DNA of 20,000 nucleotides from positions 108,184 to 128,183 of IMG/VR virus record IMGVR_UViG_3300024261_000008; one strand, written 5' to 3'. Of the stretch, positions 1 through 18,130 are shown piece after piece (the first letter of the stretch is position 1; each line of letters opens with the position of its first letter). The position numbers and the translations under genes were made by a program. Below the pieces are notes generated by a model, which was not told the origin of the DNA, ran no database searches, and saw only the letters and a list, made by a program, of their open reading frames with translations. The stretch is from an uncultured virus (IMG/VR IMGVR_UViG_3300024261_000008). Taxonomy: Duplodnaviria; Heunggongvirae; Uroviricota; Caudoviricetes.

Positions 1-850
1 TTTTACCGAAATCGCATAGTTTTGTACACTTCCATGTTTTCTTGAGAGGTGGACGCTTACAGTTTTTGATATCCTCGAAAGTTTTACGCAGCATCATCTC
101 AACTTTAAATAAATCTCCTTTTTCAAAATTTATAGAAAATATGCCGCCGTCATTAATAAAATTAATCGTAACTATAATATGTTTTGCTTGAGGATACAAA
201 TGTTGAATAGCATAGTAATACAGCATTAGCTGTGGGTCTCTCTGTAACTTAGCTATGGTCTTCTCTTCACCTGTGGCCCAATCCAAACGCCTTCCTGTTT
301 TATAGTCAGTAATCTCATATGTATCATCGTTAATTTTTGTGATCAAGTCGATTGTACCTTTAATCGCCAACTGTCCTTTGACATGGTTGCCTTCTGCGTC
401 AGTAAAGTCATACCAAGCCCAAGGCTTATCAATAGTAATATCAAACCGTTGTTCAGGCTGGATGATATGCTGATTTCTGGGGTCTAACATACCATTGTTC
501 TGCTCTAAACATTTTTGTATCCATTTTCTACAATCTCTGTAGTCTACGTCAGTCCATTTATGGTGTGTAAACGCACTGGTATAATAATCATAGACTTTTT
601 GCGTTAAATCATCTATGCTATAATTATGTACATTGACATATCCTACAATATCATCCTCAAAGCTACCTTCTTTGTTTTGCAGTCCTAACTGTACGAAAGC
701 AAGTATCTCCATCACCTTATGAACGATGGTTCCTTTGTCTGCTTTCTTATTAGAATCTCCATTGTGTCCTAATACATACTGGAAAAAGTATTGTTGATTA
801 CACATTTTCCATGTGCCTAGTGAACTACTTCTAATATATGCTATATCCAT
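1..850 (-). CDS. PD-(D/E)XK nuclease, Cas4/RecB-family exonuclease (3' end runs off the window; not in the ORF track)
   Basis: Manual translation from ATG at 850, preceded by AGGAG: MDIAYIRSSSLGTWKMCNQQYFFQYVLG...KGTIVHKVME...PEQRFD...KGTIDLI...ITDYKTG...PQLMLYY...WKCTKLCDFGK, open to base 1. Shows RecB-family motifs (E, G-x-I-D, D-Y-K-T, QxxxY), one N-terminal Cys and C-terminal Cys residues. Confidence 0.88.
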   Translation of the reverse strand, partial: MDIAYIRSSSLGTWKMCNQQYFFQYVLGHNGDSNKKADKGTIVHKVMEILAFVQLGLQNKEGSFEDDIVGYVNVHNYSIDDLTQKVYDYYTSAFTHHKWTDVDYRDCRKWIQKCLEQNNGMLDPRNQHIIQPEQRFDITIDKPWAWYDFTDAEGNHVKGQLAIKGTIDLITKINDDTYEITDYKTGRRLDWATGEEKTIAKLQRDPQLMLYYYAIQHLYPQAKHIIVTINFINDGGIFSINFEKGDLFKVEMMLRKTFEDIKNCKRPPLKKTWKCTKLCDFGK

Positions 851-858
851 AAAATCTC

Positions 859-1932
859 CTATCGAGTTAAAACGCCACCATCCCTTGAAAGCATTAGTTT
901 ATCCCATGCAGACAAGGCATCAGGAGCCGTACTGGGCAGCACCTCAATGTTGTTATTAATAAAATGTGTTGATCCATCAACAAATACCACACCAACTCCA
1001 CCGGGATGTAGACTTCTAGAAGTTGCTTCATTGTTAGTTAAATTAAAACAACTCATCCCTTGTGCGTTCATGTCGTAGCTTTGTTGTAAAAGGTTGCAGT
1101 TTATTACATTGTCTGCACCTGACGAGGTATTAGCATTTGGCCCAGCAGCATCTAGACTCACCCCATCATAAGTTAAGCCGCCATGACCCCATAACGCACT
1201 ACTGCCAGCACCAGCCATAGCCCAGCAACCTCTAGAATCTCGTTCGTCGATACCTGCACGAATTTCTGCTAATAAACAAGTATTAGAAGTTCCATCAGTT
1301 ATATGTCCGAACTGACTACTCGCTCCATACCCCATGACTCCTCTAAGCATAGGGTCGTTCCAGTTCTTGCCATTATTGCCCAGAGCATTAAATGGAGGAT
1401 GTAAAGTCAAAGAGAACATACCTAGGCCTGCGTTAGCAGCATAGTTACCTCTAGCCCAGTTATCACCCCATTGTGCAGACCTAGAAGCAGAAGTGCCATT
1501 AAATGGCTTCCTATTATATGGGTCACTAGCACAAAGCATAACACTAAGTTCTGTAGAACGCAACGCCTCATTGCTTGGTGCTGATACAGTAAACCTAGAG
1601 TCGCTTTCGTCGTGTAGAGACTTTACTGTGCTTTGCTCTACATAGTCTAGGATGTCAATTACCCAATTCTTTGTTCTGGTATATGAACCAATGCCATCTG
1701 GTGGCAAGTTAGGATCGTTTGATGAAATCTTATGACTAGCATACGGAAATCTACGATGTGCAGACTCGTAATTGTGACACGCTAGCCCTAACTGTTTCAT
1801 ATTGCTGGCACAAGACATACGTCTTGCAGCCTCTCTTGCGGATTGCACAGCAGGCAACAACAAGCCAACAAGCACACCGATGATGGCAATAACAACAAGT
1901 AGTTCGATTAAAGTAAATGCTTTCTTATTCAT
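859..1932 (-). CDS. DUF1559 family protein with prepilin-type N-terminal cleavage/methylation motif and H-X9-DG C-terminal motif (Planctomycetota-type)
   Basis: N-terminus KKAF|TLIELLVVIAIIGVLVGLLLPAVQSAREAARRMSCASNMKQLGLACHNYES..FP region (cleavage expected before the Phe); internal ITDGTSNTCLLAE; C-terminal RSLHPGGVGVVFVDGS (H-X9-DG). GGAG upstream; ATGA overlap with the upstream kinase gene. Confidence 0.95.
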   Translation of the reverse strand: MNKKAFTLIELLVVIAIIGVLVGLLLPAVQSAREAARRMSCASNMKQLGLACHNYESAHRRFPYASHKISSNDPNLPPDGIGSYTRTKNWVIDILDYVEQSTVKSLHDESDSRFTVSAPSNEALRSTELSVMLCASDPYNRKPFNGTSASRSAQWGDNWARGNYAANAGLGMFSLTLHPPFNALGNNGKNWNDPMLRGVMGYGASSQFGHITDGTSNTCLLAEIRAGIDERDSRGCWAMAGAGSSALWGHGGLTYDGVSLDAAGPNANTSSGADNVINCNLLQQSYDMNAQGMSCFNLTNNEATSRSLHPGGVGVVFVDGSTHFINNNIEVLPSTAPDALSAWDKLMLSRDGGVLTR

Positions 1933-2510
1933 AGTAATTTCTCCAAAGTTAAAAAGTTGTCCAATTCATTCAAAGTCTCTTGTACCGTCTTATTAGTATT
2001 GTCAATAACTAAATCGAAGTTATCTATTGAAAAATAAGTGTGATCTAATGCAGTCTCACTGGCATGGTTACTATTATACACGTTCCGTTCCAGTTTGACA
2101 ACCACCCCGCCAGCATTTTTTATACATTCTACTTCATTAGGGAAACGACAGTCTGCTACAAGTGCCAGAAAAGGTGAATCTTTTTCTATGCGACCTATAG
2201 TTGCTGCTGACCATACATCATTTTTAATAGTACGAAATATATCTGTTCCTACATACTGCATTACTTCTCTAGCAGTCATGTTTTTCCCATGTCTCTTACA
2301 TTCTGTCAAAGTGTTCTTTGCAGCATCGTCGCCGTAACACTGGGTATATGTCAAACCTAAAACATCCATACATACAGTGCGTTTTAGTGGATCAGCAAAA
2401 TTATATACTTTGCATACTTTATCTCCTGTACACTTAGACGCAAGGTGTTCTGCACAAGTTGTTTTACCAGACTGTTTTCTGCCAGCAAATGCAATAATCT
2501 TAGTTTTCAT
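1929..2510 (-). CDS. Deoxynucleoside monophosphate kinase (T4 gp1-like P-loop kinase)
   Basis: Walker A AFAGRKQSGKTT, NFADPLK, TAREVMQYVGTDIFR, DCRFPNE and HASETALD motifs typical of phage dNMP kinases. Confidence 0.88.
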   Translation of the reverse strand: MKTKIIAFAGRKQSGKTTCAEHLASKCTGDKVCKVYNFADPLKRTVCMDVLGLTYTQCYGDDAAKNTLTECKRHGKNMTAREVMQYVGTDIFRTIKNDVWSAATIGRIEKDSPFLALVADCRFPNEVECIKNAGGVVVKLERNVYNSNHASETALDHTYFSIDNFDLVIDNTNKTVQETLNELDNFLTLEKLL

Positions 2511-3676
2511 ATAACGTCCTTTATATACTGTTTGATTTCCTTGTCAATTTCTTCACTAGTCATTTCACCAATGTCACCCTTAGATATTTCTGGTATAAAT
2601 ACCCTGTAAGTGTTTTGGCATTTGTTCTTAATCTCTTGTGCCGCCTGCTTACCAGCCTCATCATTATCGGTCAATACTATTATAGCCATTGCTCCCGAAG
2701 AGTCCAGTAATATTTTCTGTCTATCGCTCAGATTACAGCCAAATATAGCTACACTATTATGTATGCCATTCTCTTCTAGTCTCCATACATTGCCGGGACT
2801 CTCTACGATAATAGCTACATGAGACTGCTCTATATGCTCTTTGGCAAAACCTTTCCAATAGTTGTACAAATTATTCTGACTTTTAAAATCTGCACTATGT
2901 TTCCATTTAGAGTAGGCCCATCTATATTCTGAATCAGGACAATCTTGGTTGGGGTCATGGTAAGCACCACATTTAGGACAAGCCTCAAATATGCTGCGAC
3001 CAGTACAGCCTACCATATTATCATATTCTAGATTGTATATGGGTGCTACTACACGATTATTCATAGGCTTGCCTTTAGAGGCACACAAACCAACGTCATA
3101 CCTGTCCAATACTTCCTGTGAATATCCTCTATTTATAAAGTATTCAGCAGGATAAATTAGTGAACTTCTAACTTGTTTTCTGGTAATCTTAGAGGCTTGA
3201 ACTTTGTCTTCTTCCCTTATATGATTAATTGCATTGGTAAAGTTAGACTTATTGCGATTGACCTTTGTGATCTTAATATCTTTCATGTCTTTGTTGACAA
3301 ACTTTTCTAAGAAAGTTACTGCTTCTTTAAAGGTTGCCATCTTATCGCCTTGCTTATACCACTTATATTTTCTGTGTGATATAATACCTCTTACGAAACC
3401 TATTAGTGAACCCCTAAAGCACTTTTGACAACCATGAGTCCTACACTTCCAGTTACCCTTATAATTATCGTAGGCATCATCACCCACATGATAAATGTTC
3501 AGTGCGGAGTCATTGTCTCCACCGTGTATGGGACAAGGCATACTATACATCTTGCCTTTATCTTTATATTCAAGATCAAAGTAGTCAAACAATGCTTCTA
3601 TGTCATCACACGCCATATCGCATAGTATTTTTAACTTTTTCTGATCACTCGAATGGGATTTGTTCGCTGTCTTCAT
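2507..3676 (-). CDS. dnaG: DNA primase (CHC2-type zinc-binding domain plus TOPRIM domain)
   Basis: N-terminal CPIH...CRTHGC zinc-binding domain, YFINRG, VVAPIYN...GCTGR, TOPRIM VESPGNV and TDNDEAG; adjacent to dnaB. Confidence 0.85.
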   Translation of the reverse strand: MKTANKSHSSDQKKLKILCDMACDDIEALFDYFDLEYKDKGKMYSMPCPIHGGDNDSALNIYHVGDDAYDNYKGNWKCRTHGCQKCFRGSLIGFVRGIISHRKYKWYKQGDKMATFKEAVTFLEKFVNKDMKDIKITKVNRNKSNFTNAINHIREEDKVQASKITRKQVRSSLIYPAEYFINRGYSQEVLDRYDVGLCASKGKPMNNRVVAPIYNLEYDNMVGCTGRSIFEACPKCGAYHDPNQDCPDSEYRWAYSKWKHSADFKSQNNLYNYWKGFAKEHIEQSHVAIIVESPGNVWRLEENGIHNSVAIFGCNLSDRQKILLDSSGAMAIIVLTDNDEAGKQAAQEIKNKCQNTYRVFIPEISKGDIGEMTSEEIDKEIKQYIKDVI

Positions 3677-5114
3677 TATTTTCCTCTACCAAAAAGCCAT
3701 CTGATTCTTGTCCACGATTATTCATTACTTCTAATTTAGTTTTACCTTCGGTAATCTTTGCACACCAACCTTTCATGTTGCAGTTGATGTAGTCGTTATC
3801 GTCTAGTCCTCCACCATGACGACTAATAAGAGGAACTAGCTTACGGTTGCCGTTGTCTGCACCATCTTCAGCAATCTCTTCAGACGACTTGCGTTTAAAG
3901 ATACTGAAATTGCTACAGAGCCATACGATTCTATCTGAGCCGCTAGCCGTATCTGTGCTCTCTTTTGTTATACCGTCACGGTTTAGCTGAATAAATGCCA
4001 TGATAGGTATTTTATATTTTGTTGCGAAGTTATGTAGTTGTGTCATCATAAATCCCAACAGTTGATACTCTTTCATATCCGCACTCATGCCTTGCGTATC
4101 CATCAATTTTAGGTAGTCATAGAAGATAACACAGTCTTTTGCTGTGCCGTCATCATTTAGTCCTACTTCTTTTACGATCCATCTACGCACAATAGACATT
4201 TGATCTTCAAAACTTTTACCAGCAATAGACTTATGATAATACGGTGTCTTTTTAAGTTTAGCCATTGCTTCTATTATTTTTGTTTTGTTTGCGGGTGTGC
4301 CAGCAAACCTTCCGGTTTCTATATCATTTATCTCAACCTCTGTCATCATAGCCAGAACACGATTGATATGGTCTTCTTTAGTCATTTCAGTATCCATATT
4401 TAATACTGGGATACCGAGTTCACTAGCTATATAAAAGCCCATATTGTCTGATAATAAAGTCTTACCAGTTTTTGGTCTAGCAGCAATCACGTTGACTGTG
4501 GACTTTCTTAGTCCCCCACCTATAGCCTGATCGTATGCAGGGAAGCCAGTAGAAATACCTACTTGGTCAACTTTATTTTCTACAAGGTCTTTGACATACG
4601 CATCTATATCGCTTCCGATAGTTTCTGGTTTACCATCAGAATCATTCAACACGTTCGTAAAATCAAAAACAGCATCTTCAGCTACAGCCAGAATAGAACC
4701 AATGCTCTCTGTGCCAGTGACATCCAACAGTTTGTCTCCAGCCCCTTCTAATTGTTTCTTTAGTAGTCTAGCTATTTCTAGTTTGCGAATTTTTGCTGCA
4801 AACTTTCTGACGTTATCCAGATTCACGGGGAAATCTATTACGGCTTTGAGATGCTGAACCTCATCCTTTTTCTGAATAACTGCACCAAGAGTTAACTCTT
4901 CAGCAGCAGAAAAGATAGATGCCACATCAATAGATGTTTGTACCTCTTCTTTATCAAAAATAGTCTTCAGGCATTTAAACAGTATCACATTACTGTCTAC
5001 AGTAAACGTAGATTCGGTTACAATGTCTGCTATATCTAACCAGCCGTCATGACCATACTTGCACAATCCTGCAAGCACTGCTCGTTCTGCTGATGTGTCG
5101 CTTAATACTAACAT
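3645..5114 (-). CDS. dnaB: Replicative DnaB-like (SF4) DNA helicase
   Basis: AERAVLAGL N-terminus, GISTGFPAYD, Walker A AARPKTGKT, DTEM, Walker B FYDYLKLM, IQLNR, ASGSDRI, SRHG. Confidence 0.93.
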   Translation of the reverse strand: MLVLSDTSAERAVLAGLCKYGHDGWLDIADIVTESTFTVDSNVILFKCLKTIFDKEEVQTSIDVASIFSAAEELTLGAVIQKKDEVQHLKAVIDFPVNLDNVRKFAAKIRKLEIARLLKKQLEGAGDKLLDVTGTESIGSILAVAEDAVFDFTNVLNDSDGKPETIGSDIDAYVKDLVENKVDQVGISTGFPAYDQAIGGGLRKSTVNVIAARPKTGKTLLSDNMGFYIASELGIPVLNMDTEMTKEDHINRVLAMMTEVEINDIETGRFAGTPANKTKIIEAMAKLKKTPYYHKSIAGKSFEDQMSIVRRWIVKEVGLNDDGTAKDCVIFYDYLKLMDTQGMSADMKEYQLLGFMMTQLHNFATKYKIPIMAFIQLNRDGITKESTDTASGSDRIVWLCSNFSIFKRKSSEEIAEDGADNGNRKLVPLISRHGGGLDDNDYINCNMKGWCAKITEGKTKLEVMNNRGQESDGFLVEENNEDSEQIPFE

Positions 5115-5506
5115 TAACCACTACCCTTTGAGCATGAGTTGCATTTATATCTAGCTTCGCCCTCATATAACAGACTAGCACTGACTTCCTCTGATTTGCC
5201 GCATATACGACAAGTTGCTTTTACCATAGATACACTACGATTTCTAGGAACAGGAGGATACTGTGATAGCTTTTTCTGCAATTCTGTATCCTGCTTGTGC
5301 AGTTTATTTTCCATCATTTCATCAAACTTATTATAGTGCTTGCCAGTTCTATACGAAGGTCCAGCATCCTTAATAGGAGTATTGGGATTGATCAGTGGGG
5401 AGACATCTGTTTTGACTGCCACTGCTTCTTCTTTGTCTTCTGGAAGCATGGCTTTTAACATGCCAATCATTTGCTTGATCTGTGCTGGACTTAATTCTTC
5501 AGCCAT
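5114..5506 (-). CDS. Hypothetical protein with C-terminal C4 zinc finger
   Basis: CRICG...YKCNSC pair; overlaps both neighbours in the operon. Confidence 0.75.
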   Translation of the reverse strand: MAEELSPAQIKQMIGMLKAMLPEDKEEAVAVKTDVSPLINPNTPIKDAGPSYRTGKHYNKFDEMMENKLHKQDTELQKKLSQYPPVPRNRSVSMVKATCRICGKSEEVSASLLYEGEARYKCNSCSKGSG

Positions 5507-5987
5507 TTTTCACCATGCCCTTTGCTCTTTGAATGTTAATTAAAATATCCGATAGGTTTTTCAATGAACTAGACAAGTAAGTTAGTCTGTCTAGTCTCTG
5601 CGTTGCATACTTCTTTATCATGTTTAATTTGAATGCTTTCTCATTGTGTTTAATTGCTTGGTATGATTTTTCAAGATATCCGTATCCTTTGTAGCTGTTG
5701 ATTTCATCAGCAATTACAATCTTGATTTCATCGTCAGCCCAATTAATTCTTGCCTGCTCACGGTTTATAGTTCGCTGTAGATGGAAACCAAATTGTCCAA
5801 GTCTAAAAGCGATCTCTGCACAGTGAGTTATATCCATCTTTTCTAACACATCTCTCGTCATTGTCAAGTACTCATTTAATTCTTTTTCTGGTAGGCTATC
5901 GCCTTTATATGATGGCATACCTAGACCATGTTCATATTCGTCTAGTACTGTATCCCAATATTCTATTTGTTCTTTAGCAGTTTTCAT
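5499..5987 (-). CDS. Hypothetical helical protein, possibly UvsY-like recombination mediator
   Basis: 162 aa, predicted alpha-helical/coiled-coil, between recA and dnaB. Function inferred from size and context only. Confidence 0.55.
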   Translation of the reverse strand: MKTAKEQIEYWDTVLDEYEHGLGMPSYKGDSLPEKELNEYLTMTRDVLEKMDITHCAEIAFRLGQFGFHLQRTINREQARINWADDEIKIVIADEINSYKGYGYLEKSYQAIKHNEKAFKLNMIKKYATQRLDRLTYLSSSLKNLSDILINIQRAKGMVKNG

Positions 5988-6394
5988 CCTAATATCCTTT
6001 TACGCCATTGTTCTAAGTCTTCGCTGTATGGTAACTCAATATATTCTATTCCGTTTAATTCGCACCATTCTATTTTTTCTCTGTCTCGTTTCTTATGTTG
6101 TGCAAAATTCATTGGTGTTTGATGGAAGTGAGGTATAAACTTATAGTGTTGTTCGCCATGAACCTCAATACACTTGCTATTAAGAGGTAGGAAAAAATCT
6201 AGATATACTCTCTGACCTTTCTTAATCGGTATTGTAATCTCTTCACATATTTGTAAAGTAGGAAAACATTCTTTAATTAAATCTCTCGCTGCTGTATGAT
6301 ATTTTGACTTACCTGCCCTAGTTGCTCTAGAAAGACCTTGTGCGATGTTCAATTTTATTTGGTTGCCATCTAGATCGTATACAGTTTTACTCAT
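5984..6394 (-). CDS. PD-(D/E)XK endonuclease (DUF559/Vsr-like)
   Basis: ICEE...YLDFFLP...CIEVHGEQHY...KKRDREKIEWCELNGIEYIELPY motif pattern. Confidence 0.8.
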   Translation of the reverse strand: MSKTVYDLDGNQIKLNIAQGLSRATRAGKSKYHTAARDLIKECFPTLQICEEITIPIKKGQRVYLDFFLPLNSKCIEVHGEQHYKFIPHFHQTPMNFAQHKKRDREKIEWCELNGIEYIELPYSEDLEQWRKRILG

Positions 6395-7406
6395 CTACTT
6401 CCAATCCTAGCATTGCCTTTAATTCTTTGTCTAATTGTTTGGCATGGTCAGGGTTTTCTAATAGATACAGCCGTACCTTCTCAGCACCTTGAAATTTAGG
6501 CTTGTCTTTAATAGACTCAAGCGTGTACCATGCACCACCTTTTTTAATAACACCCAAGTCGCTGCATAATTCGACCAACTCAGACATCTTATCAATTCCT
6601 TGTCCATATCTTATAAAACTGATACTCTTTACTCCCGGTGGTCCAAGAGCAGAGGTGATCGTCTTCCAAGTGACTTTCTGGCCGACTTGTGGCCCTGTTG
6701 CAGGAATGTGCCATGCTTCTACTTTTTCAGCCCATAGCTTCACATCTGTCTGATATGCTACAGCTTGTCCTGATTTTTCTTTGAACTCTTTTCCATAGCC
6801 GGTAGGATTACCCATAAGATGAGTAATACCAATAACAATATTCTTATTGACAGGAATAACATTGGCTACCTTTCTACAAAATTTAGCAAGCAATTTAGCA
6901 CCGTCAGCCCTTTGCATTTTATTCATCTCAGAAGTTATCTCTGCTTCTGTACAAAGTGCTGAATAAGAATCAATAATTAAAATAGAACCGGGAATCTCAT
7001 TGATGATACGTTCTGCAATAGCAAGATATTCTTCACCATGTAGAATCTTACCTTGTTGAGAGCCTACAATTTCAAACCTGTCTAAGTCTAGTCCTTCAAT
7101 CCCTTTTAAATCCCGTTGCTTTAATCTACCTTCTATGTTTAGGTAATACGCCTGTCTTGGTTTCTTTAGGTCTCCCTGATATTCTGGTCTGAGTGCTGTG
7201 GAGCAAAAGTCTAGAGACGATGTAGTCTTGCCGCATTTAGGTTGTCCAGTGAAGATGATGAAACTACCTTCTGGTATTCCTCCTCCTAGACCCAAGTCTA
7301 AAGCTGGACTAACTGGTATAATAACTTGCTTTTGATCGACGACAGCATTTGCTGACACTACAATTTCATCACCAAATTGTTTTTTAATATCTTCCTTTAA
7401 TGCCAT
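6387..7406 (-). CDS. recA: RecA/UvsX-like recombinase
   Basis: SPALDLGLGGGIPEG, Walker A GQPKCGKTT, NIEGR, Walker B LIIDSYSAL, C-terminal GVIKKGGAWY...KFQGAEKV typical of RecA. Confidence 0.92.
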   Translation of the reverse strand: MALKEDIKKQFGDEIVVSANAVVDQKQVIIPVSPALDLGLGGGIPEGSFIIFTGQPKCGKTTSSLDFCSTALRPEYQGDLKKPRQAYYLNIEGRLKQRDLKGIEGLDLDRFEIVGSQQGKILHGEEYLAIAERIINEIPGSILIIDSYSALCTEAEITSEMNKMQRADGAKLLAKFCRKVANVIPVNKNIVIGITHLMGNPTGYGKEFKEKSGQAVAYQTDVKLWAEKVEAWHIPATGPQVGQKVTWKTITSALGPPGVKSISFIRYGQGIDKMSELVELCSDLGVIKKGGAWYTLESIKDKPKFQGAEKVRLYLLENPDHAKQLDKELKAMLGLEVDE

Positions 7407-9477: not shown

Positions 9478-10059
9478 CTATAAGTAACCTTTGAGATAAT
9501 TGTTCCATTGACTTGGTATCCTATCCTTTATTATATGCAGTTCATGGGTGATTGGCAAGTACCTATTTGATTTTTTTGGACGAACTGGCTTTTTACGCAG
9601 TTTTAAGTCTGTTTGATTTAACATTTTATTAGATTTTCTGCGATTGCATTTTATGCAGCAGGTTACGATATTTTCCCAAACAGTAGGAGAACTTGATTCT
9701 TCCCATTTGGACTTAGGAATAACATGGTCGTAAGTTAATTGATTTACACTTGGTAAGGCCCCACAGTATTGACAGCTATAATCATCTCTAATAAATATAT
9801 TTTTTCTAGAAAAAACAACATGGTGAGTATTATATATATTAAAATACTTAGCTGTTTTAATAACAGAAGGGACTTGAACAGTGTTCTTGGTGCCTTGTAT
9901 AAAATCATCAGTATAATATTCTATAATTTCAATAGAAGGCTTTTCATGCATAGAATACTGATATTCCCAAACGATGGCTTTTCTCCAACTGATAATGCCA
10001 ATCGGAGAAAAGTCAGCATTTAATATTAAGCACTTTTTATGATCTTCTATTGTTTTCAT
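9478..10059 (-). CDS. HNH endonuclease (McrA/HNH_5-like)
   Basis: CLILNADFSPI...ISWRKAI, PSVIK, FSRKNIFIRDDYSCQYCG...LTYDHVIPKS...WENIVTCCIKCNRRKSN. Confidence 0.9.
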   Translation of the reverse strand: MKTIEDHKKCLILNADFSPIGIISWRKAIVWEYQYSMHEKPSIEIIEYYTDDFIQGTKNTVQVPSVIKTAKYFNIYNTHHVVFSRKNIFIRDDYSCQYCGALPSVNQLTYDHVIPKSKWEESSSPTVWENIVTCCIKCNRRKSNKMLNQTDLKLRKKPVRPKKSNRYLPITHELHIIKDRIPSQWNNYLKGYL

Positions 10060-10753
10060 GATTAGATAGCCTATCTACAATATCAGCGATAATTGGATTT
10101 CTAACTATATCTATGTCTTCTAGTCTTTGACATCCTACGCCATAAACATCTTCTAGTATATCAGACAGTGCATAAAAACCACCTTGTTGCTGCCTCATAA
10201 GATCAGACTGCTCTACGTCTCCCGTTAAGATCATTTTGCTATCCATGCCAATTCTAGTCAACAGCATTTTAAGTTGGTCGTAGGATGCATTCTGGCACTC
10301 GTCAGCTATGATAAAAGCATTGTGGAAGCTACGACCCCTCATTAAAGCTAGAGGTACAACTTCAAGTTTTTTCTTGGCTTTTAGCATACCTATATGAGTA
10401 GGCATTAAAAAGTGACTTAGTTCATCAAACAAGGGAAGTAGATAGGGGTGCAGCTTCTCTTCTGCTGTTCCCGGTAAGAAGCCTAGTTTTTCTCCAGCTT
10501 CTACTACTGGTCTAGTAATAACTATTCTTTCAACTTTCATATCTAATAGATATTCTAAGGCCATTCCTACTGCAATATGAGTCTTACCAGTACCTGCTGC
10601 ACCTTGGCAAAAAGTAATAGTATTCTCAGCTACAGAACGAATATAATCTTTCTGATTAATTGTTTTAGGTTTTAACCTGTTTTTAAATCCAACAATAATC
10701 TCTTCAGGCTTTTCAAGCCTGTTAGTACCAGTGTTCTTTTTTTTCTTTCGCAA
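10037..10753 (-). CDS. phoH: PhoH-like ATPase
   Basis: PKTINQKDY, GAAGTGKT, ITRPVVEAGEKLGFLPG, LALMRGRSF, ADECQN, LTRIG, GDVEQSD, VRNPII. Start re-called at TTG 10753, which has GAGGT 6 nt upstream, rather than the ORF-track ATG inside nrdJ. Confidence 0.93.
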   Translation of the reverse strand: MRKKKKNTGTNRLEKPEEIIVGFKNRLKPKTINQKDYIRSVAENTITFCQGAAGTGKTHIAVGMALEYLLDMKVERIVITRPVVEAGEKLGFLPGTAEEKLHPYLLPLFDELSHFLMPTHIGMLKAKKKLEVVPLALMRGRSFHNAFIIADECQNASYDQLKMLLTRIGMDSKMILTGDVEQSDLMRQQQGGFYALSDILEDVYGVGCQRLEDIDIVRNPIIADIVDRLSNHENNRRS

Positions 10754-10782
10754 AATAATACCTCTCGGTAAAGGGTTAGAGT

Positions 10783-12984
10783 TTAAATTAGACAAGCACC
10801 TCCTGCACAACTAATTTCCTCTATTCCTGTCGTATTATCCTCTGTTTCTAAGAGTTGTGTATAATCAACTTTAATAAAACTGTCGTAAAGGTCTTTATAC
10901 CTTTTCCAGTTATATACGTCTTTCATACAGTATGTTAGACGTTTTTCATCGCCGTCAAAATAGCTGGCGGCAAATCTATGCATCTTTACAGCAAAAAGTT
11001 TTTTATCATCAGGGTCACTATCAGCTTCTTGCTTCAAAGTAATATAGTCACATGCGGCCCATAAATTTAAATCAAAAGCATTCAGGCCTAATTCGATTAA
11101 ACCAGAACACCATAAGGCAGCATCGCCATATTCTTTCACAATCTCTCTAGGAGTATAGACTGTAGTAAATGGTGCTTGAGGATAATCCTTGTCACCACTC
11201 TGAGGAATCAAACTAATTCCAGCAAAGAACTTTCTATTATTATATATATATTTAGTTACGGATTCCCATTCTTCGGGCTTTACAGTAACAGTGTTGCTGA
11301 CGTTGTGACTAAGAAAGTCCTGTGTACATAACGATCTATTTTTACCAGATTGTACCCAGTTTCTTTGAGCGTCTTTTACAACACCCAGCATTTCTACAGC
11401 AGGTAACTGATTCTTTAGCTTAGAACCGTCAGGAACTTCTATAGGGAATTTTACAACCTCATCTGTATCATTAGCAGACCAAGAAGATTTTTCGCAGGCC
11501 TGTGGGTTATAACTCTTAAAGTGTTGAAAAGGGGCTTCCAGAATATTCGCTTGTACATGTCTAATGTATCTCTTAGCATGGTGAGGATGAATACCGGAAC
11601 TTGTACCAAGCATAGAACTTGAGGTTCCTTCTGGTTTCAAGCAAGTTACTCTAGCTGCCTGATTAATATTAATTATTTTAGCAATCTCTTTGTTTGTATC
11701 AACAGCAATCTTAGCACCTTTTTTGAGTACTTTCTCTGTCAATACTAAATCATGTTTTTCCATTATTCCTGTTAAAGAGACACCTAGCAATGCTTCTCTT
11801 TCAAAGATAGCATTGGTGACATCACCTAGATATTCTAGGTTTGTAAAGCCTGCTTGCAGAGTTCCAATAATAGCAGCAGCCCGACATCTTTCGTAAAAGT
11901 CTTCTTCGTCTACTACAGAAGAGCAATTAATCGTAGAAAGATTACAACCTTGCCAACCAGACTTACCTGTTTTCTCATCTACAGGCCACATGCCTACTTC
12001 TACGCATGGGTTAAATGTCATCTCTGTGGAGTCGCTCCAGATAAATCCGGGTTCACCGAACTCTTTGACTGAATCCATCAGATTCTTAAATTGTTCGTAT
12101 GTAGTCTCGTCTTTCAGAAGTAGAGCGGAGTTGTTACTTCTGGCTCGCTGTGGATTATCTATGTACCAGTTGCCCGTTTTGGCTTTAGCCATTTCTTCAT
12201 CATCTGCACTAAATAGTGCTAAGGACGCACTTCTGCGAACACCACCAGATAGTACAGCATCGCTTGAGTGCATAATAATATCATAAGCATCAATCGGTCT
12301 GAGTTTTTTGGTCTTATTTTCAACGCATTTCTCCAACAGCTCTCTAATTTTTTCTAAGCCATTTTGTAGAGGCTCGAAACCGGGAGCCTTACCTACGCCG
12401 GAAGAAAGCACAGCACCTTTCTCACGAATGTTACTGTAATCAAAGACAATGTACTGATCCTTATATTCTTTAAATTTTTCATCTGTAGGCTTAGTAAAGT
12501 ACGAACTAAGCAACACGCCTAAAGCATCAGACCAGCCTTCGATACTATCTTCTATTTTATACTTTACACCTTTTCGCTTATCTTTTTTAGTTTGTATCAA
12601 TGAAGGAAGTTTAGCTACGTGATGCTTTTGGACACTAAAGCCCGTTCCGCTACCGCATAATAACAGCCAGAAACATTCTTGAAAGAATCTTGGACGATCA
12701 CAATAAGAACTGGTACAGTTATAGATTTTGGCATGTCGTTTTAATATAGGGTCTCCACCGAACTGCAATGCTCTTTGACTGCCTAGCACTTTCTTTTTAT
12801 GCATCATACTATAAGCCCAGTTGATTTGATCTGCTAGGCTTTCTATGCTTCCATATTGAGTATGCATCATTCCTTGTACACGCTCTACTGCTTCTTTCCA
12901 AGTCTCTCTTCTGTTTTCTGATTCTACCCAACGTGCGTACTTGCTAACAAAAGTATAGTTCTGTAATTCATTTAACGCCGACAT
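10783..12984 (-). CDS. nrdJ: Class II adenosylcobalamin-dependent ribonucleoside-triphosphate reductase (monomeric RTPR type)
   Basis: RETWKEAVER, YNC, GSGTGFSV, GGVRRSA, RARSNNS, GEPG, NPCVE (thiyl-radical Cys), GCNL, TCLKPEGT, HNVSNTV, YPQAPF and C-terminal redox pair CAGGAC. No small-subunit gene nearby; AGGAG upstream. Confidence 0.92.
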   Translation of the reverse strand: MSALNELQNYTFVSKYARWVESENRRETWKEAVERVQGMMHTQYGSIESLADQINWAYSMMHKKKVLGSQRALQFGGDPILKRHAKIYNCTSSYCDRPRFFQECFWLLLCGSGTGFSVQKHHVAKLPSLIQTKKDKRKGVKYKIEDSIEGWSDALGVLLSSYFTKPTDEKFKEYKDQYIVFDYSNIREKGAVLSSGVGKAPGFEPLQNGLEKIRELLEKCVENKTKKLRPIDAYDIIMHSSDAVLSGGVRRSASLALFSADDEEMAKAKTGNWYIDNPQRARSNNSALLLKDETTYEQFKNLMDSVKEFGEPGFIWSDSTEMTFNPCVEVGMWPVDEKTGKSGWQGCNLSTINCSSVVDEEDFYERCRAAAIIGTLQAGFTNLEYLGDVTNAIFEREALLGVSLTGIMEKHDLVLTEKVLKKGAKIAVDTNKEIAKIININQAARVTCLKPEGTSSSMLGTSSGIHPHHAKRYIRHVQANILEAPFQHFKSYNPQACEKSSWSANDTDEVVKFPIEVPDGSKLKNQLPAVEMLGVVKDAQRNWVQSGKNRSLCTQDFLSHNVSNTVTVKPEEWESVTKYIYNNRKFFAGISLIPQSGDKDYPQAPFTTVYTPREIVKEYGDAALWCSGLIELGLNAFDLNLWAACDYITLKQEADSDPDDKKLFAVKMHRFAASYFDGDEKRLTYCMKDVYNWKRYKDLYDSFIKVDYTQLLETEDNTTGIEEISCAGGACLI

Positions 12985-13541: not shown

Positions 13542-13569
13542 ATTATAGTTAAAATCGTTATGAAGTCAA
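13542..13569 (-). promoter_or_regulatory. Sigma70-like promoter TTGACT-N16-TATAAT upstream of the dCMP deaminase/nrdJ/phoH block
   Basis: Minus strand reads cTTGACTtcataacgattttaacTATAATaggta; the -35 overlaps the upstream gene's stop codon and the rest lies in one of the few intergenic gaps. Confidence 0.75.
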
Positions 13570-14153
13570 GAAGGATTATAATTTTTTGAGTAGTCTCCAA
13601 CAACAAAATCCATATAGTGATAGTAATATATAATGTCTTGCTGTCTCTGAGTTAACGCTATAGATTTTTTAATTAGGCTTTTATTAGTATGCGGAAAGTT
13701 GTTAAGTATATCAAACCTTTCTGGACCATCACCGTGATATATGTCTTCATTGTTTAAAAATTCTTCAATGATATTTTCACATTTTATTAGATGTGTATAT
13801 TGCGGATATACTATGCTGACAGGCATTTGTACTGCTTGCTTAGAGTGTAACATTAACCACTCATCAAATGATATGGCATCATTTTCCATTTGTATATGCC
13901 ACTTCCATTGACTAATAACTCTATCATATGGGTTTCTAATCGGTAAATATCTTTTCCAGCCTTCTTGCATAACTAGTTCAGGAACCGTGGCTGAATGCGG
14001 ATTTGTCCATAGTGTAGGCTCCCAGCTATAGTGTGGATTGCTACCCAGAAACCTAGTATAGCAATTCCATTGATTAAAGAAGTCTATTATACTACTAGAA
14101 TAATTTTTAAAAGGCGTATAAATACAAAATCTCTTCTTACGGTTTACTATCAT
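13566..14153 (-). CDS. Sulfotransferase family 2-like protein
   Basis: MIVNRKKRFCIYTPFKNYSSSI (divergent 5'-PSB-like loop), PIRNPYDRVISQW (3'-PB motif RNPYDRxxS), SFDEW, IKCEN, PHTNKS, IYYYHYMDF tail. Confidence 0.65.
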   Translation of the reverse strand: MIVNRKKRFCIYTPFKNYSSSIIDFFNQWNCYTRFLGSNPHYSWEPTLWTNPHSATVPELVMQEGWKRYLPIRNPYDRVISQWKWHIQMENDAISFDEWLMLHSKQAVQMPVSIVYPQYTHLIKCENIIEEFLNNEDIYHGDGPERFDILNNFPHTNKSLIKKSIALTQRQQDIIYYYHYMDFVVGDYSKNYNPS

Positions 14154-15541
14154 AAATCACCTATCTGTGGTTCGCTGAAGTTACTTATTATATAGTTTTG
14201 ATTCTTATTAGTTTTATTAAATTCATTATCCAGTTCTAGGCCAGTAAATTTCTGTACAATAGTTTTTTCATTAAGTTTATGGTCTTTAATTAAAATTACA
14301 TTTTCTAGTTCTTCTATTGGATGTTCGTATCTAATATTGCCTTCTAATAATATTATCTTGTGATTCATTAATAAAGATTCTAATACTACTACAGGACAAG
14401 GGTCACGGTTACTAGTTAACATAAAATAGTCTAATTTTTCTAGTTGTCTATACGGGTTTTCTGTTACAGGCAGGCAGGAAAGATTTGCTTCATTATGCGG
14501 AAATTCTCCTCCTATCCAAATGAAATCATATTCGGGATTATTCTTTGCTAGTAAAGCAAATAATCTGGGATTTTTGCGACTACATACAGTACCGCACATT
14601 CCTATTTTAATACGTTTGTTTTTTCTTGTTCTTTTTTTAGTTTTTAAAATTTTAGCTTGACGAGTAGGATGTATAAATTCTGGAACCAGTTTACATTTTT
14701 CTTTAATCTCTGGTGGTAAATTAAAGTTTTGCATTATTTTATCTGCTACAAAATACGTAGATTTAAACTGTGATATCAGTGTTATAATTTCTTTTCTGTT
14801 TGAGCCAAAACATCTGTATAGATCATTATAGGTCTCATGGAGATGTAATATTGTACGACTTAGATATTTTTCAAAAACTTTATAGTCTTTAGTTATCCTA
14901 GTCATAGAGTTTGAGTAAATCAATCTGGGTTCATTAGCATCTAATATGTCTTTAAGTATATTGGTATTGCCAAAGTAGTATAGCTTTTGTATAGATTTGT
15001 GTAATTTGAAACAGTTTGAGGGGAAAATATCTAACCATACAACTTTCTCTCCTTTATCAACAAGCCAATTAGCTAAATCTTGTAAGTAAAAAGGAGCACC
15101 TGTTCTGCTAGTATGGTGATTCACTAGAACAATAGCATCATCGTCAAAAAATATTTCTTGCTCTATTAAAAACTTATTTAGTTCTTGATAAGACATGCCT
15201 ATATCCCATAATCTACCTTCTCCATAACCATGCTGCATGAAGTGGGAACTAGGACATTTTAGCCTCTTTATCTCCGGGTTAATAAATAAATATATATCAG
15301 AATCGAAACTACTAGGTAATTCAAGAAGTGTCTTGTGATACAGATTTTTAGTAGACCTGTTTTCTTTTTGTCCCGACATTAAATAGTGCAGATATAAATC
15401 AAATTTATTAAACAGTAGGTTCTCTTGCAGGTCTGGGTTTACGTCTAAATACTCTATATGATTAAAGTCCGGCTCCAGTGTCCTCACAGATTTATAGAGG
15501 ATGGACTGCTCGTCGATACATTTTTTGAAATGTTTTCGCAT
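14150..15541 (-). CDS. GT4-like (GT-B) glycosyltransferase with two N-terminal FD..YL..NP...HY...G..E.R repeats
   Basis: VLVNHHTSRTGAP, LHLHE, IGMCGTVCSRKNP, FIWIGG, DYFMLTSNRDPCPVVVLES. Confidence 0.8.
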   Translation of the reverse strand: MRKHFKKCIDEQSILYKSVRTLEPDFNHIEYLDVNPDLQENLLFNKFDLYLHYLMSGQKENRSTKNLYHKTLLELPSSFDSDIYLFINPEIKRLKCPSSHFMQHGYGEGRLWDIGMSYQELNKFLIEQEIFFDDDAIVLVNHHTSRTGAPFYLQDLANWLVDKGEKVVWLDIFPSNCFKLHKSIQKLYYFGNTNILKDILDANEPRLIYSNSMTRITKDYKVFEKYLSRTILHLHETYNDLYRCFGSNRKEIITLISQFKSTYFVADKIMQNFNLPPEIKEKCKLVPEFIHPTRQAKILKTKKRTRKNKRIKIGMCGTVCSRKNPRLFALLAKNNPEYDFIWIGGEFPHNEANLSCLPVTENPYRQLEKLDYFMLTSNRDPCPVVVLESLLMNHKIILLEGNIRYEHPIEELENVILIKDHKLNEKTIVQKFTGLELDNEFNKTNKNQNYIISNFSEPQIGDL

Positions 15542-16029
15542 GATTTTTTATCTCTTTGTGATATAACGCTAGGCGTTGCCACAGGCCAAATAATATTAAA
15601 TGCAGGGTCACACCAGCAATGCCCCATATCGTGCTTAGGTTCGTATACAGAATCTTGTTGATGGTAAAGTTTACAACTTTCCTGTACAAAAAACCCATGA
15701 CCACAATTTGGAGGAATGTAAATACTGTTTAATTTTTCAGAATCAATAGTGGTTCCAAAATATTGATTGTATGTTTCACTCTCTGGTCTTAAGTCTACAC
15801 ATACAATATACACCTTACCGGCAAGACAACTAATTAATTTTCCATAAGGAGTCTGGTGTATTCCAGAAATTGTACCGACTGTAGCTTCTTCATAATTTGT
15901 TTGAAATGCAACAAATTGAGGTAGAGCACAACGCTTGTACATTTCTGCAAACACTCCAAGGTGTCTCTGCTTTATCTCTGGATACATTACTACGCAGCCT
16001 AAAATAAAAGTGTCTCTAATCTCAATCAT
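15484..16029 (-). CDS. rmlC: dTDP-4-dehydrorhamnose 3,5-epimerase family (RmlC-like cupin), divergent
   Basis: GTISGIHQ..YGKLISCLAGKVY..CVDLRPESETYNQY, IYIPPNCGHGF, WCDPAFNIIWP, ISQRD. Confidence 0.82.
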   Translation of the reverse strand: MIEIRDTFILGCVVMYPEIKQRHLGVFAEMYKRCALPQFVAFQTNYEEATVGTISGIHQTPYGKLISCLAGKVYIVCVDLRPESETYNQYFGTTIDSEKLNSIYIPPNCGHGFFVQESCKLYHQQDSVYEPKHDMGHCWCDPAFNIIWPVATPSVISQRDKKSCENISKNVSTSSPSSINL

Positions 16030-16030
16030 T

Positions 16031-17020
16031 TTAATTTTTCCAGTAAGAATAAATATTTTTATCTATTTCATAAAAAGGCCAAATGAACCTTTCACGTTTA
16101 GGTTGCTTTTTAGCCCAATCCCACATATCAACTAGACCTTCTTTTAGATCGGTCTTGTGTTCAAAATCTAATAAGTCTATAGATTTTTGGTAAGTAGCGA
16201 AAGCATGTTTTACTTCGTGTCTACTCTCTAAATGTTTTTTAGAACCATCTCCTATGATATTTAACAAAGTGTCACAGGCGAAATTTATAGAAAATTCTTT
16301 CATTCCTCCTAGATTAATAATTTGCTTAGATGCTCTGGAGTCAACCGCTGATTTAAATAGTGGTTCTACGCTGTCATTAATATGGCTGAATGCTCTTGTC
16401 TGATGACCATCTCCAAATATAGTCATAGGTTCATTGTTTAATGCCTGATACATCCATATTCCTAATACGTTTCTGTATTTATCCCAAATGTTCTGTTTGC
16501 GACCATAAACATTATGGGGTCTAATAACACACCAATCTAAACCGTGTTGCTCTCCTGCTATGCGTATATCGCACTCAGCAGCATATTTAGCGACTCCATA
16601 TGGATCAATAGGCATAGGCTGCATATCTTCATCGAATGGTGCTTCTAAGTTACCATATGTAGCCATAGTAGAAGTAAATACAAGTCTCTCTACTCCATTC
16701 ATGATACAGCAGTTGACCACATTTGCGGTTGCCTTGAGATTATTTTCATAATTAAAACATCTAATAAAAGGACTCAATCCTTCCGCTGCATAAGCGGCTA
16801 GATGAAATACATAATCCGGTTTAATTCTAGCAAAATAGTTCTTAAAGTCAGAGTGGTTGCAACTAATTTTATTATGGTTTACGCGAGGGTCTATATTGTT
16901 TTCATATCCTCCACTCATATCATCAGCACCATAGACTATCCAATCTGTACTATCTAATATATAGTCTGCTAAGTTAGAGCCTAGAAGTCCAGCATTACCA
17001 GTTATTAAGCATTTTGTCAT
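16031..17020 (-). CDS. NAD-dependent NDP-sugar epimerase/dehydratase (extended SDR, GalE-like)
   Basis: LITGNAGLLG, DDMSGG, FHLAAYAAEG, FTSTMATYG, PYGVAK (YxxxK), RPHNVYG, IFGDGHQTRAFSHI. Confidence 0.92.
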   Translation of the reverse strand: MTKCLITGNAGLLGSNLADYILDSTDWIVYGADDMSGGYENNIDPRVNHNKISCNHSDFKNYFARIKPDYVFHLAAYAAEGLSPFIRCFNYENNLKATANVVNCCIMNGVERLVFTSTMATYGNLEAPFDEDMQPMPIDPYGVAKYAAECDIRIAGEQHGLDWCVIRPHNVYGRKQNIWDKYRNVLGIWMYQALNNEPMTIFGDGHQTRAFSHINDSVEPLFKSAVDSRASKQIINLGGMKEFSINFACDTLLNIIGDGSKKHLESRHEVKHAFATYQKSIDLLDFEHKTDLKEGLVDMWDWAKKQPKRERFIWPFYEIDKNIYSYWKN

Positions 17021-17028
17021 TGTTGCCT

Positions 17029-17799
17029 CTATATCATTTTAGAATTATTTATTGGGTTGTGCTTCGGTTGATTTTGCCATTTAGTAGCAAAAAACTTTTT
17101 ACATTCTGCCTCTATCGACTGCTCTTTAACTTTAGCTTCTGTACTCTTTCTGCTTACTGAAACGAAATGATAAAAGGCACATTCATAAGTTCTTAGCATT
17201 TTCCATCCGTTGAGTTCACACTTTAAGAAAAAATCCCAATCAGTGTATGAACCTGTTAAGGTAGGATATTCTATATCAAAACCTCCACAAGACATATAAT
17301 TCAACCTACTCATATATATGGGATAGGTAGAGCCTGTGTCTTCAATCAGGTCTTTCCTTTGGGACTTTTCAAACTTCCAAAAACCTTCTAGGTCAAATTT
17401 TGCTGGGTCTTTACCACAGTCCTTAATAATAAACTGACTAAACATACTGTTGTAAGGTTCAATCTGGTTAGGTGCTATGACTGAATTTGTGACATCTAGC
17501 TTTCCCAAAATAGTGTCCCATTCCTTGGGGAAAACATTGTCATCATTTGTAATAAGCACACGCTTATTTTTAGCTAAAGACACTCCAAGGTTTTGTGCTC
17601 TGGTCATTCCAACATTGTTAGGTAGGACGACAGGGTGTATTTGGCTGTAGTATTTACTGAGAACATCTGTATTGACCTCAAGGGTTCCATCAACAACAAC
17701 TAATATCTCGTTGAGTTTTTCCTGTCCTTCAATAACAGACCGTAAACATAAGTCTAATGCTTGAGGAGTCTTAAATGTTGGTATAATTACACTAATCAT
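17029..17799 (-). CDS. Family 2 (GT-A) glycosyltransferase
   Basis: MISVIIPT, EILVVVDG, NVGMTRAQNLG, ITNDDNVF, GGFD...DWDFF, FYHFVSVS. Start placed at ATG 17799 (MISVIIPT); the ORF track extends to 17844. Confidence 0.88.
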   Translation of the reverse strand: MISVIIPTFKTPQALDLCLRSVIEGQEKLNEILVVVDGTLEVNTDVLSKYYSQIHPVVLPNNVGMTRAQNLGVSLAKNKRVLITNDDNVFPKEWDTILGKLDVTNSVIAPNQIEPYNSMFSQFIIKDCGKDPAKFDLEGFWKFEKSQRKDLIEDTGSTYPIYMSRLNYMSCGGFDIEYPTLTGSYTDWDFFLKCELNGWKMLRTYECAFYHFVSVSRKSTEAKVKEQSIEAECKKFFATKWQNQPKHNPINNSKMI

Positions 17800-18130
17800 A
17801 TTGTCTGTAGTATTCTCCTGTGTCAATAGTTTTCTTAGAGACACTAAACTTCATTGACATACTGTCTGTGAAAGGTACGCAAAAAACAGATTCATTTTTA
17901 GTGTACCAGCCATATTCGCATTCTGTAGGCTCCCCTATTATAAATACAGGCTTAGAGTCTACCACTATTGCACCCAGATATAAAGGCCTAACACAAACCT
18001 GTACAAAGTTGTCAAATAGTTCTATAAAATCTTCTGTGTCTGCCCAGTTGTTCAGAGATTCCTCCGACTTATATTCTGAGGATTCTTTACAAAAGGGGAA
18101 CATATGTATTATGTAGCGTAACTTATCCAT
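17792..18130 (-). CDS. Hypothetical protein within the glycosylation cluster
   Basis: 112-aa ORF coupled to the upstream gene (TAATG) and overlapping the downstream GT2 start. Confidence 0.65.
   Translation of the reverse strand: MDKLRYIIHMFPFCKESSEYKSEESLNNWADTEDFIELFDNFVQVCVRPLYLGAIVVDSKPVFIIGEPTECEYGWYTKNESVFCVPFTDSMSMKFSVSKKTIDTGEYYRQYD

Follow-up and report, generated by a model that had tools for sequence, protein, structure and literature searches.

Here we describe a gene for a prepilin-like protein of the family DUF1559 inside the DNA replication operon of an uncultured tailed phage. The gene lies on the minus strand at positions 859–1932 of a 20,000-nucleotide stretch, referred to as the window (positions 108,184 to 128,183 of IMG/VR record IMGVR_UViG_3300024261_000008, Caudoviricetes). 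Sequence comparisons indicate that it is a clean single-gene insertion between the dNMP kinase and the exonuclease of an abundant marine tailed phage, that it is host-derived, nesting among Pirellulales-type cellular proteins, and that it is kept under purifying selection. We hold the identity of the gene, its residence in a viral genome and its dependence on the host, taken together, with high confidence. The host is likely to be a marine planctomycete, and the protein may serve substrate capture or uptake, a role that we put forward tentatively.

The gene encodes a prepilin-like DUF1559 protein

The preliminary description of this DNA had placed an intact, prepilin-like reading frame of 357 amino acids with an H-X9-DG motif at exactly 859–1932. 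We recovered the same frame and had to correct only the strand. Its features are as follows.

859–1932, minus strand: DUF1559 / H-X9-DG prepilin-type gene (protein P0001, 357 amino acids); open reading frame (ORF), translation, PF07596, PF07963, TIGR04294 and AlphaFold2 model
1756–1932, minus strand: class III (prepilin) signal and hydrophobic alpha-1 helix; sequence, N_methyl, TIGR02532 and DSSP assignment of the model
1279–1296, minus strand: DGTSNT motif, residues 213–218; sequence
973–1008, minus strand: H-X9-DG motif, H309 to G320 (H309-X9-D319-G320); TIGR04294

The translated ORF starts with MNKKA and continues with FTLIELLVVIAIIGVL; the segment PAVQSAREAARRMSCASNMKQLGLA is likewise present in the protein. 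Prepilins carry a short basic leader, Gly or Ala at position −1, Phe at +1, Glu at +5 and about 20 hydrophobic residues, and the window protein has all of these: the five-residue leader MNKKA with a cleavage site between Ala(−1) and Phe(+1), Glu(+5), and then the hydrophobic stretch (MNKKA followed by FTLIELLVVIAIIGVLVGLLLPAV). F6 and E10 were invariant in our alignments (A1 and A4), while Ala at −1 was found in 9 of 21 A1 rows and in 31 of 80 viral copies. The globular part is equally well preserved. In an alignment of 106 sequences, G214, H309 and D319 were invariant and D213, S216 and T218 at least 90% conserved, and every residue that is invariant in the family is retained in the window protein.

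Profile searches gave the same picture. PF07596 (DUF1559) matched over profile positions 1–266 of 268 (E 1.1e-46, 160.5 bits against a cut-off of 23.3), PF07963 (N_methyl) scored 29.9 bits (cut-off 21.2), the NCBIfam GFxxxE prepilin domain TIGR02532 28 bits (cut-off 16.3), and the C-terminal H-X9-DG model TIGR04294 26.8 bits (cut-off 19) at residues 306–326. The GspG-type models of NCBIfam matched the N-terminal helix only and scored below their cut-offs; the GspG equivalog TIGR01710 reached 37.1 bits (cut-off 88.85), at residues 5–66 only. Among 38,880 PHROGs, none matched the DUF1559 domain at E ≤0.001, and phrog_3433 ('pilin', moron category) aligned with the N-terminal helix only (residues 3–41, E 5.6e-6). 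PADLOC assigned no family to either of the two DUF1559 proteins of the phage (the second is described below).

The AlphaFold2 model of the window protein was of high confidence (predicted local distance difference test 92.3, predicted TM score 0.89) and contained an N-terminal helix of 52 residues (8–59, DSSP). When it was compared with a representative PDB set by VIA-align, all 20 of the 20 matches with Z ≥2 were pilins or pseudopilins, covering residues 2–342, although these matches were weak (Z 2.1–4.4). Foldseek found no match in the PDB at E ≤0.001, only pilin N-terminal helices, and BFVD held no matching fold at the same threshold. By its profile matches, the window protein is a member of the DUF1559/H-X9-DG family and a prepilin-type protein, not a GspG equivalog.

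The insertion is built into the phage replication operon

Both ends of the gene are interlocked with its neighbours. The kinase gene ends with CTA TGA and the DUF1559 gene starts with ATG AAT, so the two share an ATGA overlap, and a GGAG lies 11 nt upstream. At the other end the TAG stop (861–859) overlaps the AGGAG (860–856) of the exonuclease, whose ATG (850–848) the TAG precedes by eight bases. The 47 nt upstream of the DUF1559 ATG were invariant among the window and two related viral contigs (L003 and L004). The surrounding features are these.

1929–1932, minus strand: ATGA overlap of dNMP kinase stop and DUF1559 start (translational coupling), read directly
848–861, minus strand: DUF1559 TAG stop, which shares bases with the AGGAG ribosome-binding site, and the exonuclease ATG after it, read directly
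1929–2510, minus strand: dNMP kinase, upstream neighbour (PF21448 E 2.9e-14, phrog_139 E 1.4e-41)
2–850, minus strand: PD-(D/E)XK exonuclease, downstream neighbour (PF12705 E 1.4e-18, phrog_69 E 4.8e-25)
2507–7406, minus strand: primase, DnaB helicase, three small ORFs and a UvsX/RecA-like recombinase (Pfam, PHROGs)
2073–2101, minus strand: sigma-70-like site TTGTCA-17-TATAAT, matching at 11 of 12 positions, in the kinase gene some 140 nt ahead of the DUF1559 start codon

The exonuclease gene runs past the start of the window and encodes 347 amino acids in full (positions 107990–109033 of the IMG/VR record, G000). The order of the genes at 2507–7406 was kept in the related loci L012 and L013. 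The site at 2073–2101 was the best of 31 sigma-70-like sites in 9 kb, a total not above chance (28.7 expected); L003 and L004 carry both of its hexamers unchanged, in a stretch of about 54 nt that is itself nearly invariant. The site hints at a possible internal promoter, but codon constraint could account for it as well.

Kinase–DUF1559–exonuclease was also the gene order in three other viral contigs (L002/L012, L003/L013 and L004), whose DUF1559 proteins were 100%, 89% and 82% identical to the window copy. Thus the identity of the two flanking genes and the integration of the DUF1559 gene into the operon, both proposed in the preliminary description, were supported by the profile matches, the two overlaps and the synteny in relatives.

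The gene has long been resident in a phage genome

The window is the final 20 kb of G000, a record of 128,183 bp that is classed as linear with a CheckV completeness of 86%. A second IMG/VR record (G001; 171,040 bp, CheckV 100% complete) matched 22 G000 proteins at 99–100% identity over the 17 kb compared. G000 encodes a large terminase, a tape measure of 3,525 amino acids and a number of Mtd_N, Collar or tail-fibre proteins, the longest with 4,824 amino acids, and phage genes flank the DUF1559 gene on both sides across 128 kb. In addition to the genes named above, the window encodes PhoH, a B12-type ribonucleotide reductase, a dCMP deaminase and sugar-modifying enzymes. By its gene content, the contig is therefore a genuine tailed phage of about 171 kb when complete.

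The DUF1559 frame was intact in four viral records from different datasets. The ratio of nonsynonymous to synonymous substitutions (dN/dS, Nei–Gojobori) was 0.069, 0.085 and 0.161 for the DUF1559 gene and 0.016–0.082 for four flanking genes, all of these being approximate values since dS, at about 0.8–1.6, is near saturation. The gene's GC content at third codon positions (GC3) was 0.338; across the 64 genes of the genome that encode at least 150 amino acids, the mean was 0.300 ± 0.046 (z 0.83). While its total GC of 0.437 ranked second of the 64, GC3 lay within one standard deviation, so the raised total does not come from third codon positions. Codon counts agreed with the earlier remark on AGA, CTA, TTA and A/T-ending codons (8, 8, 10, and 237 of 358, respectively). 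Long residence in the phage genome, which had been suggested from these codons, thus gains from synteny kept at this dS and from the ameliorated GC3.

Sequencing data from other sources confirmed the assembly. At least half of the sampled words of window positions 1–4000 were present in 17 seawater or marine DNA runs, 10 of which were not flagged as a possible source of the record. In one of the unflagged runs (X8, a separate seawater DNA run), contigs over 1–1628 and 1758–2209 bridged both junctions of the insertion with 0 differences. Pieces were also found in three metatranscriptome libraries: contigs from X18 lay within the gene (1253–1455, 1713–1829 and 1800–1930), and one contig from X19 spanned the kinase junction (1889–2039), with parts of the DUF1559 gene left uncovered. 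These RNA-library contigs are a hint of expression. The checks that had been recommended at the outset, on junctions and on dN/dS, therefore both came out in favour of a real and selected gene.

DUF1559 genes are common in uncultured viruses and occupy several positions

The distribution of the family differed sharply between cultured and uncultured phages. A tblastn search with P0001 found no match in 50,697 GenBank phage records. A profile-guided scan of IMG/VR, by contrast, gave 481 pattern matches, of which 334 encode a relative. Among the best 80 of these 334, on which the following counts are based, all 80 matched PF07596 and 75 matched N_methyl, and leaders of 4–5 residues were the commonest form; GC was 30–41% in 70 loci and 56–66% in the other 10. 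Since every one of the retained matches was a DUF1559 protein, the family is common in uncultured viruses. The previous statement that this is not a standard phage gene accordingly holds for cultured phages and fails for IMG/VR.

Flanks of eight other DUF1559-bearing viral loci, sampled from this set, contained ThyX, UvdE, SSB, YopX, RuvB, ligase, ClpP and many orphan ORFs on one strand; judged by these genes, they are phage genomes and not cellular fragments. At two loci (L040:1713–3576 and L054:23–1442), the surroundings of the pilin gene encode tandem sulfotransferases, a PhyH dioxygenase, a CAP-domain protein and trypsin-like proteases.

Replication genes of the window phage were shared by 20 of the 80 loci, which, together with the window, fall into the following arrangements.

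Group A (window and 3 loci): DUF1559 between kinase and exonuclease, which are split by the insert
Group B (7 loci): DUF1559 after an RNase T-like gene; kinase and exonuclease adjacent
Group C (9 loci): DUF1559 after UvsX; kinase and exonuclease adjacent wherever both can be seen (7 loci)
L030 (1 locus): DUF1559 about 2.3 kb downstream of the exonuclease; kinase and exonuclease adjacent

In three of the seven group B loci, the C-terminal half of DNA polymerase III (Pol III) follows. An uninterrupted kinase–exonuclease junction, the arrangement that the preliminary description had expected in phages without the insert, was thus present in 15 related loci, each with a different DUF1559 gene elsewhere in the module. 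One of them, L017 of group B, has the stop codon of the kinase and the start codon of the exonuclease overlapping in an ATGA.

Within the related phage groups, DUF1559 proteins were 73–100% identical, compared with 52–89% for primase and kinase. We considered whether hypervariability would mark DUF1559 as an arms-race gene and rejected this, as there was no hypervariability within groups B and C. Among the five group A copies, variation was concentrated in residues 61–160 and 261–305, and the N-terminal helix and the C-terminus were conserved.

The window gene and a second phage copy have separate origins

The complete genome G001 carries a second DUF1559 gene (L049:7992–8975; 328 amino acids) about 54 kb away, whose product shares approximately 32% identity with that of the window gene. 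This second copy is of the type that is common to groups B and C and has many relatives at 45–94% identity. About 3 kb upstream of it, at L049:899–4688, a PSCyt1/PSCyt2/PSD1 gene (833 amino acids) overlaps a DUF1501 gene (433 amino acids). DUF1501 and PSCyt/PSD1 are signature families of planctomycetes, and on G001 they lie side by side as they do in hosts. For the DUF1501 gene, more than 100 relatives were found at 74–95% identity; the longest contigs that carry these measure 125–206 kb, and none is megabase-sized.

In an IQ-TREE phylogeny of 64 rows, the window protein grouped with its four closest relatives (SH-like approximate likelihood-ratio support, SH-aLRT, 99) and then with the metagenomic protein P0004 (100), within a clade of 24 rows (99). 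This clade also contained Adhaeretor mobilis and Posidoniimonas corsicana, both Lacipirellulaceae, and two loci of Planctomycetota metagenome-assembled genomes (MAGs). The second-copy type formed a separate clade of 21 rows (SH-aLRT 100). Forcing the two copy types together cost 494 log-likelihood units (approximately unbiased test, P=2.3e-7; the grouping was chosen after the first tree). The window gene therefore represents a separate, lineage-specific acquisition, added to an older viral DUF1559. A virus-dominated clade of 114 leaves in a FastTree phylogeny fell apart in the smaller IQ-TREE tree, and we limit our claim to separate origins. The phylogenetic check proposed beforehand thus placed the window copy inside a cellular, Pirellulales-type clade.

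The best named cellular matches came from Lacipirellulaceae, at 49% and 45% identity. A search of GTDB genomes with P0001 alone gave 19 pattern matches and 0 relatives, from which we conclude that these genomes hold no near-identical cellular or prophage copy. Two metagenomic relatives, P0004 (65% identical) and P0006 (49%), have an N-terminal extension of 60–90 residues before the prepilin motif. In P0004 it is annotated as PF14237 (GYF_2); provided that the start codon is genuine, such a 'leader' would be of unusual length.

The phage depends on its host, which is likely a planctomycete

Neither a prepilin peptidase (Peptidase_A24) nor a pilus ATPase (T2SSE) was detected in any of five viral records, the complete one included, whereas control genomes were matched. 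DUF1559 genes encode the sole N_methyl proteins in these records. Since the phage has no such peptidase or ATPase, the protein would depend on those of the host, in line with the reliance on host machinery assumed earlier.

Who is this host? Of 78 GTDB loci fetched with DUF1559 queries, 74 belonged to Planctomycetota, and four Planctomycetota MAGs had 24–88 DUF1559 matches per genome compared with 2 in a Rubritalea MAG. A marine planctomycete is the likely host, and its lineage is probably Pirellulales-like, because the nearest cellular relatives are Pirellulales, because DUF1559 is so abundant in this phylum and because DUF1501 and PSCyt/PSD1 occur on the same phage genome. A planctomycete host, as the preliminary description had it, is thus still the best inference. 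The nearest cultured phages were very distant (23.5% identity for the terminase, 34% for Pol III alpha), so no host can be borrowed from them. A tRNA scan found none in the window or the rest of G000 and hence gave no tRNA clue to the host.

A possible role in uptake, and its rivals

How might such a protein act during infection? Translation of the DUF1559 gene would accompany that of the replication genes, and its product would be directed into the inner membrane of the host by the class III signal. There, the host prepilin peptidase would cut off the five-residue leader, the phage having no such enzyme, and the mature protein could enter the host's DUF1559- or pseudopilus-type apparatus. A substrate-capture pilin chosen by the phage, for example for a glycan or a cofactor, might then keep up or redirect uptake while the phage replicates.

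We therefore tentatively propose that the window gene is an auxiliary host-envelope gene for substrate capture or uptake, a reading that is possible rather than probable. It is favoured because DUF1559 is conserved as well as, or better than, primase and kinase within the phage groups, because the phage keeps two DUF1559 types of separate origin, and because it gathers host periplasmic families, with PSCyt/PSD1 and DUF1501 as an overlapping pair. In addition, two of four close cellular DUF1559 loci lie among genes for sugar use or uptake: one is near Peripla_BP_4 and a fucosidase, the other near an FGE-sulfatase, a carbohydrate-binding module (CBM) protein, a 3-keto-disaccharide hydrolase and an SSF symporter.

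Several points weigh against this proposal and its premises. The neighbourhood evidence is anecdotal, with four loci of which two are informative, and the function of DUF1559 is treated as unknown or merely assumed in two studies (PMC10632474, PMC2754498). An Rfam scan of the window, L091, L092, L049, L017, L073 and L036 revealed no riboswitch near phage or close cellular copies; its sole match was one tRNA in L036. For the pair L003–L004, dN was 0.132 in DUF1559 against 0.012–0.040 in the neighbouring genes, and this faster divergence would be more in keeping with an arms race at the cell surface than with uptake. The dN/dS ratios carry the imprecision of near-saturated dS, and DNA carry-over into the libraries could explain the RNA-library contigs. 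As to the host, phage GC was 37.8%, whereas the 78 cellular DUF1559 loci had a median of 55.6% and none fell below 43%, so that gene content is the sole basis of the host assignment; no spacer, tRNA or prophage link to a host was found.

The closest rival holds that the phage pilin replaces a host DUF1559 subunit in a filament and thereby masks the receptor of competing or sibling phages, resulting in superinfection exclusion. We rank uptake slightly ahead of this subunit substitution, which on its own we consider somewhat unlikely, and the two readings are close. Experimental precedent exists (PMC12952977): FimU-like pilins of prophages become part of the pilus and stop phages that bind to its tip, virulent phages have PilA-like genes as well, and P-PilA is about 50% identical to host proteins, which resembles the roughly 49% found here. 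Coupled translation within an early or middle operon for replication would also suit such a function, as would the pattern of variation in group A, since pilins likewise conserve the N-terminal helix and C-terminus, and the L003–L004 dN, which is 3 to 10 times that of neighbouring genes. However, P-FimU proteins are described as highly diverse (PMC12952977), whereas phage DUF1559 is at least as conserved as primase and kinase and not hypervariable. Candidate hosts have 24–88 DUF1559 matches per genome, so the effect of one replacement is unclear; no named cellular counterpart above 49% identity was found; and the reading presupposes that DUF1559 proteins make external filaments at all.

A dominant-negative action, in which the protein jams the prepilin peptidase or the assembly platform and stops pili or type II-like secretion, appears improbable. 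If it occurred, adhesion, motility or DNA uptake of the infected host would change. The very short leader, the perfectly conserved class III signal, the prevalence of 4–5-residue leaders among the 80 viral copies and the absence of assembly machinery from the phage would all be compatible with jamming, and blocking of type IV pilus assembly by phage proteins has been described. But a pure jammer would need the N-terminal helix only, as the truncated PilA-like phage proteins of 60 residues illustrate (PMC12952977). The window protein keeps all invariant residues of the globular domain, including DGTSNT and H-X9-DG, and dN/dS is low over its whole length; jamming is less likely because this entire domain is conserved.

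Finally, that the gene is a functionless passenger, or its setting artefactual (chimerically assembled, or a piece of cellular or prophage DNA), as its second-ranked total GC and the linear, 86% complete record might suggest, is extremely improbable and largely refuted already by the intact frame in four viral records from different datasets, dN/dS of 0.07–0.16, a GC3 that agrees with the genome, both junctions bridged by contigs of another run, the 17 marine runs (10 not flagged as a possible source) and the phage genes on either side across 128 kb.

Returning to the uptake proposal, a wider version of it would be that globally distributed Planctomycetota phages of about 150–200 kb systematically import the signature envelope families of their hosts (DUF1559, DUF1501, PSCyt/PSD1). 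We regard this generalization as rather unlikely. Under it, DUF1559 would have been acquired two or more times and would occupy at least four positions in the genomes, and the imports would reprogramme pilin-based capture or uptake, with glycans as candidate cargo or, alternatively, cobalamin for the B12-dependent ribonucleotide reductase of the phage; the cobalamin idea is speculative and arises because such a reductase occurs in a phage with pilin-like genes. If this were true, the phage copies, being single genes with minimal leaders, would offer the most tractable handle yet on DUF1559 function.

Other features of the phage genome

Pol III alpha, of the DnaE type, is split into two genes in G000 (C1:103232–107713; L011:7232–11713). 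The N-terminal half (PHP and NTPase) comprises 624 and the C-terminal half (finger and HhH) 538 amino acids, and an RNase T-like exonuclease gene lies between them; group B phages have a further insert at this place that includes DUF1559. Very large structural proteins of 1,426, 2,217, 4,824, 3,525, 1,914 and 3,030 amino acids are encoded at G000 C1:16516–92410. Several of these have an Mtd_N domain, and one combines a YHYH domain with fn3.

Within the window, the ribonucleotide reductase (10783–12984, minus strand) resembles the adenosylcobalamin-dependent RTPR (PF21995; TIGR02505 with E 2.7e-60, below the equivalog cut-off). An HNH endonuclease gene lies directly downstream of PhoH (9478–10059 and 10037–10810, both on the minus strand), and the PhoH ORF, as called, begins at a TTG, where it overlaps the end of the reductase gene. 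A surface-sugar or modification island at 13566–19361 (minus strand) encodes a dTDP-sugar epimerase, an NAD-dependent epimerase, GT2 glycosyltransferases and a GT4-like protein. GC falls to 0.30–0.32 at 13.5–15.5 kb, and the adjacent paralogues at 18130–18762 and 18759–19361 both start with MSISYTV.

Significance and comparison with known systems

DUF1559 is the largest paralogous (orphan) family of planctomycetes and has no demonstrated function; Planctopirus limnophila has 68 paralogues, of which two are essential (PMC10632474), and Rhodopirellula baltica has 74 (PMC2754498). Phages keep, exchange and reposition genes of this family under purifying selection. The family thus appears to act in a process that matters during infection, and compact natural variants are available for expression tests. 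At the same time, the window gene indicates a host, giving an abundant, uncultured lineage of marine phages a phylum-level assignment, and it suggests that the host's cell-surface or uptake machinery is altered. In full-text literature searches, no paper dealt with DUF1559 in phages, judging by titles and the starts of abstracts, and planctomycete phages came up in a passing mention only.

Compared with cellular DUF1559 proteins of Planctomycetota (PF07596, 'SBP_bac_10'; TIGR04294), the window protein is alike in its full-length family match, in all invariant residues and in its nested position. It differs in being phage-encoded, as a single gene inside a replication operon, in its leader of 5 residues versus about 7–25 in cellular A1 rows, in a GC3 adapted to an AT-rich genome, and in an identity of at most 49% to any named cellular protein. 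With GspG and type IV pilins (6xxd, 4lw9, 5wda and others) it shares the N-terminal methylation motif and the long alpha-1 helix, but the structural matches to them are weak (Z 2.1–4.4), and the large domain between this helix and the C-terminal strands has no solved counterpart. The likeness to phrog_3433 is limited to the prepilin N-terminus and does not extend to the DUF1559 domain.

Marine phages carry auxiliary genes for nutrient binding, for example the phosphate-binding protein PstS of cyanophages. The window gene resembles these as a host-derived gene of an envelope or periplasmic binding type that is conserved and spread across many phage lineages, and we use this likeness as a working model only. 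Like an auxiliary gene, it combines a predicted host origin with purifying selection in phage genomes.

The nearest parallels are the P-FimU proteins of F10-like Pseudomonas prophages and the P-PilA proteins of Xylella prophages and virulent phages, which are also phage-encoded, pilin-type and operated by host machinery (Sztanko et al., Cell Rep 2026, PMC12952977). As here, these proteins are about 50% identical to their host counterparts, and some are found in non-temperate phages (PMC12952977). The window gene is, in the same way, phage-encoded and homologous to a pilin-type component of the putative host, with 45–49% identity to Lacipirellulaceae. In contrast to P-FimU and P-PilA, its product belongs to a different pilin family with a globular domain of about 300 amino acids and is associated with another host phylum, and it is not hypervariable within phage groups. 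Thus, the window gene extends the recently described phage-encoded pilins beyond Pseudomonas and Xylella, to another pilin family, another phylum and another evolutionary pattern.

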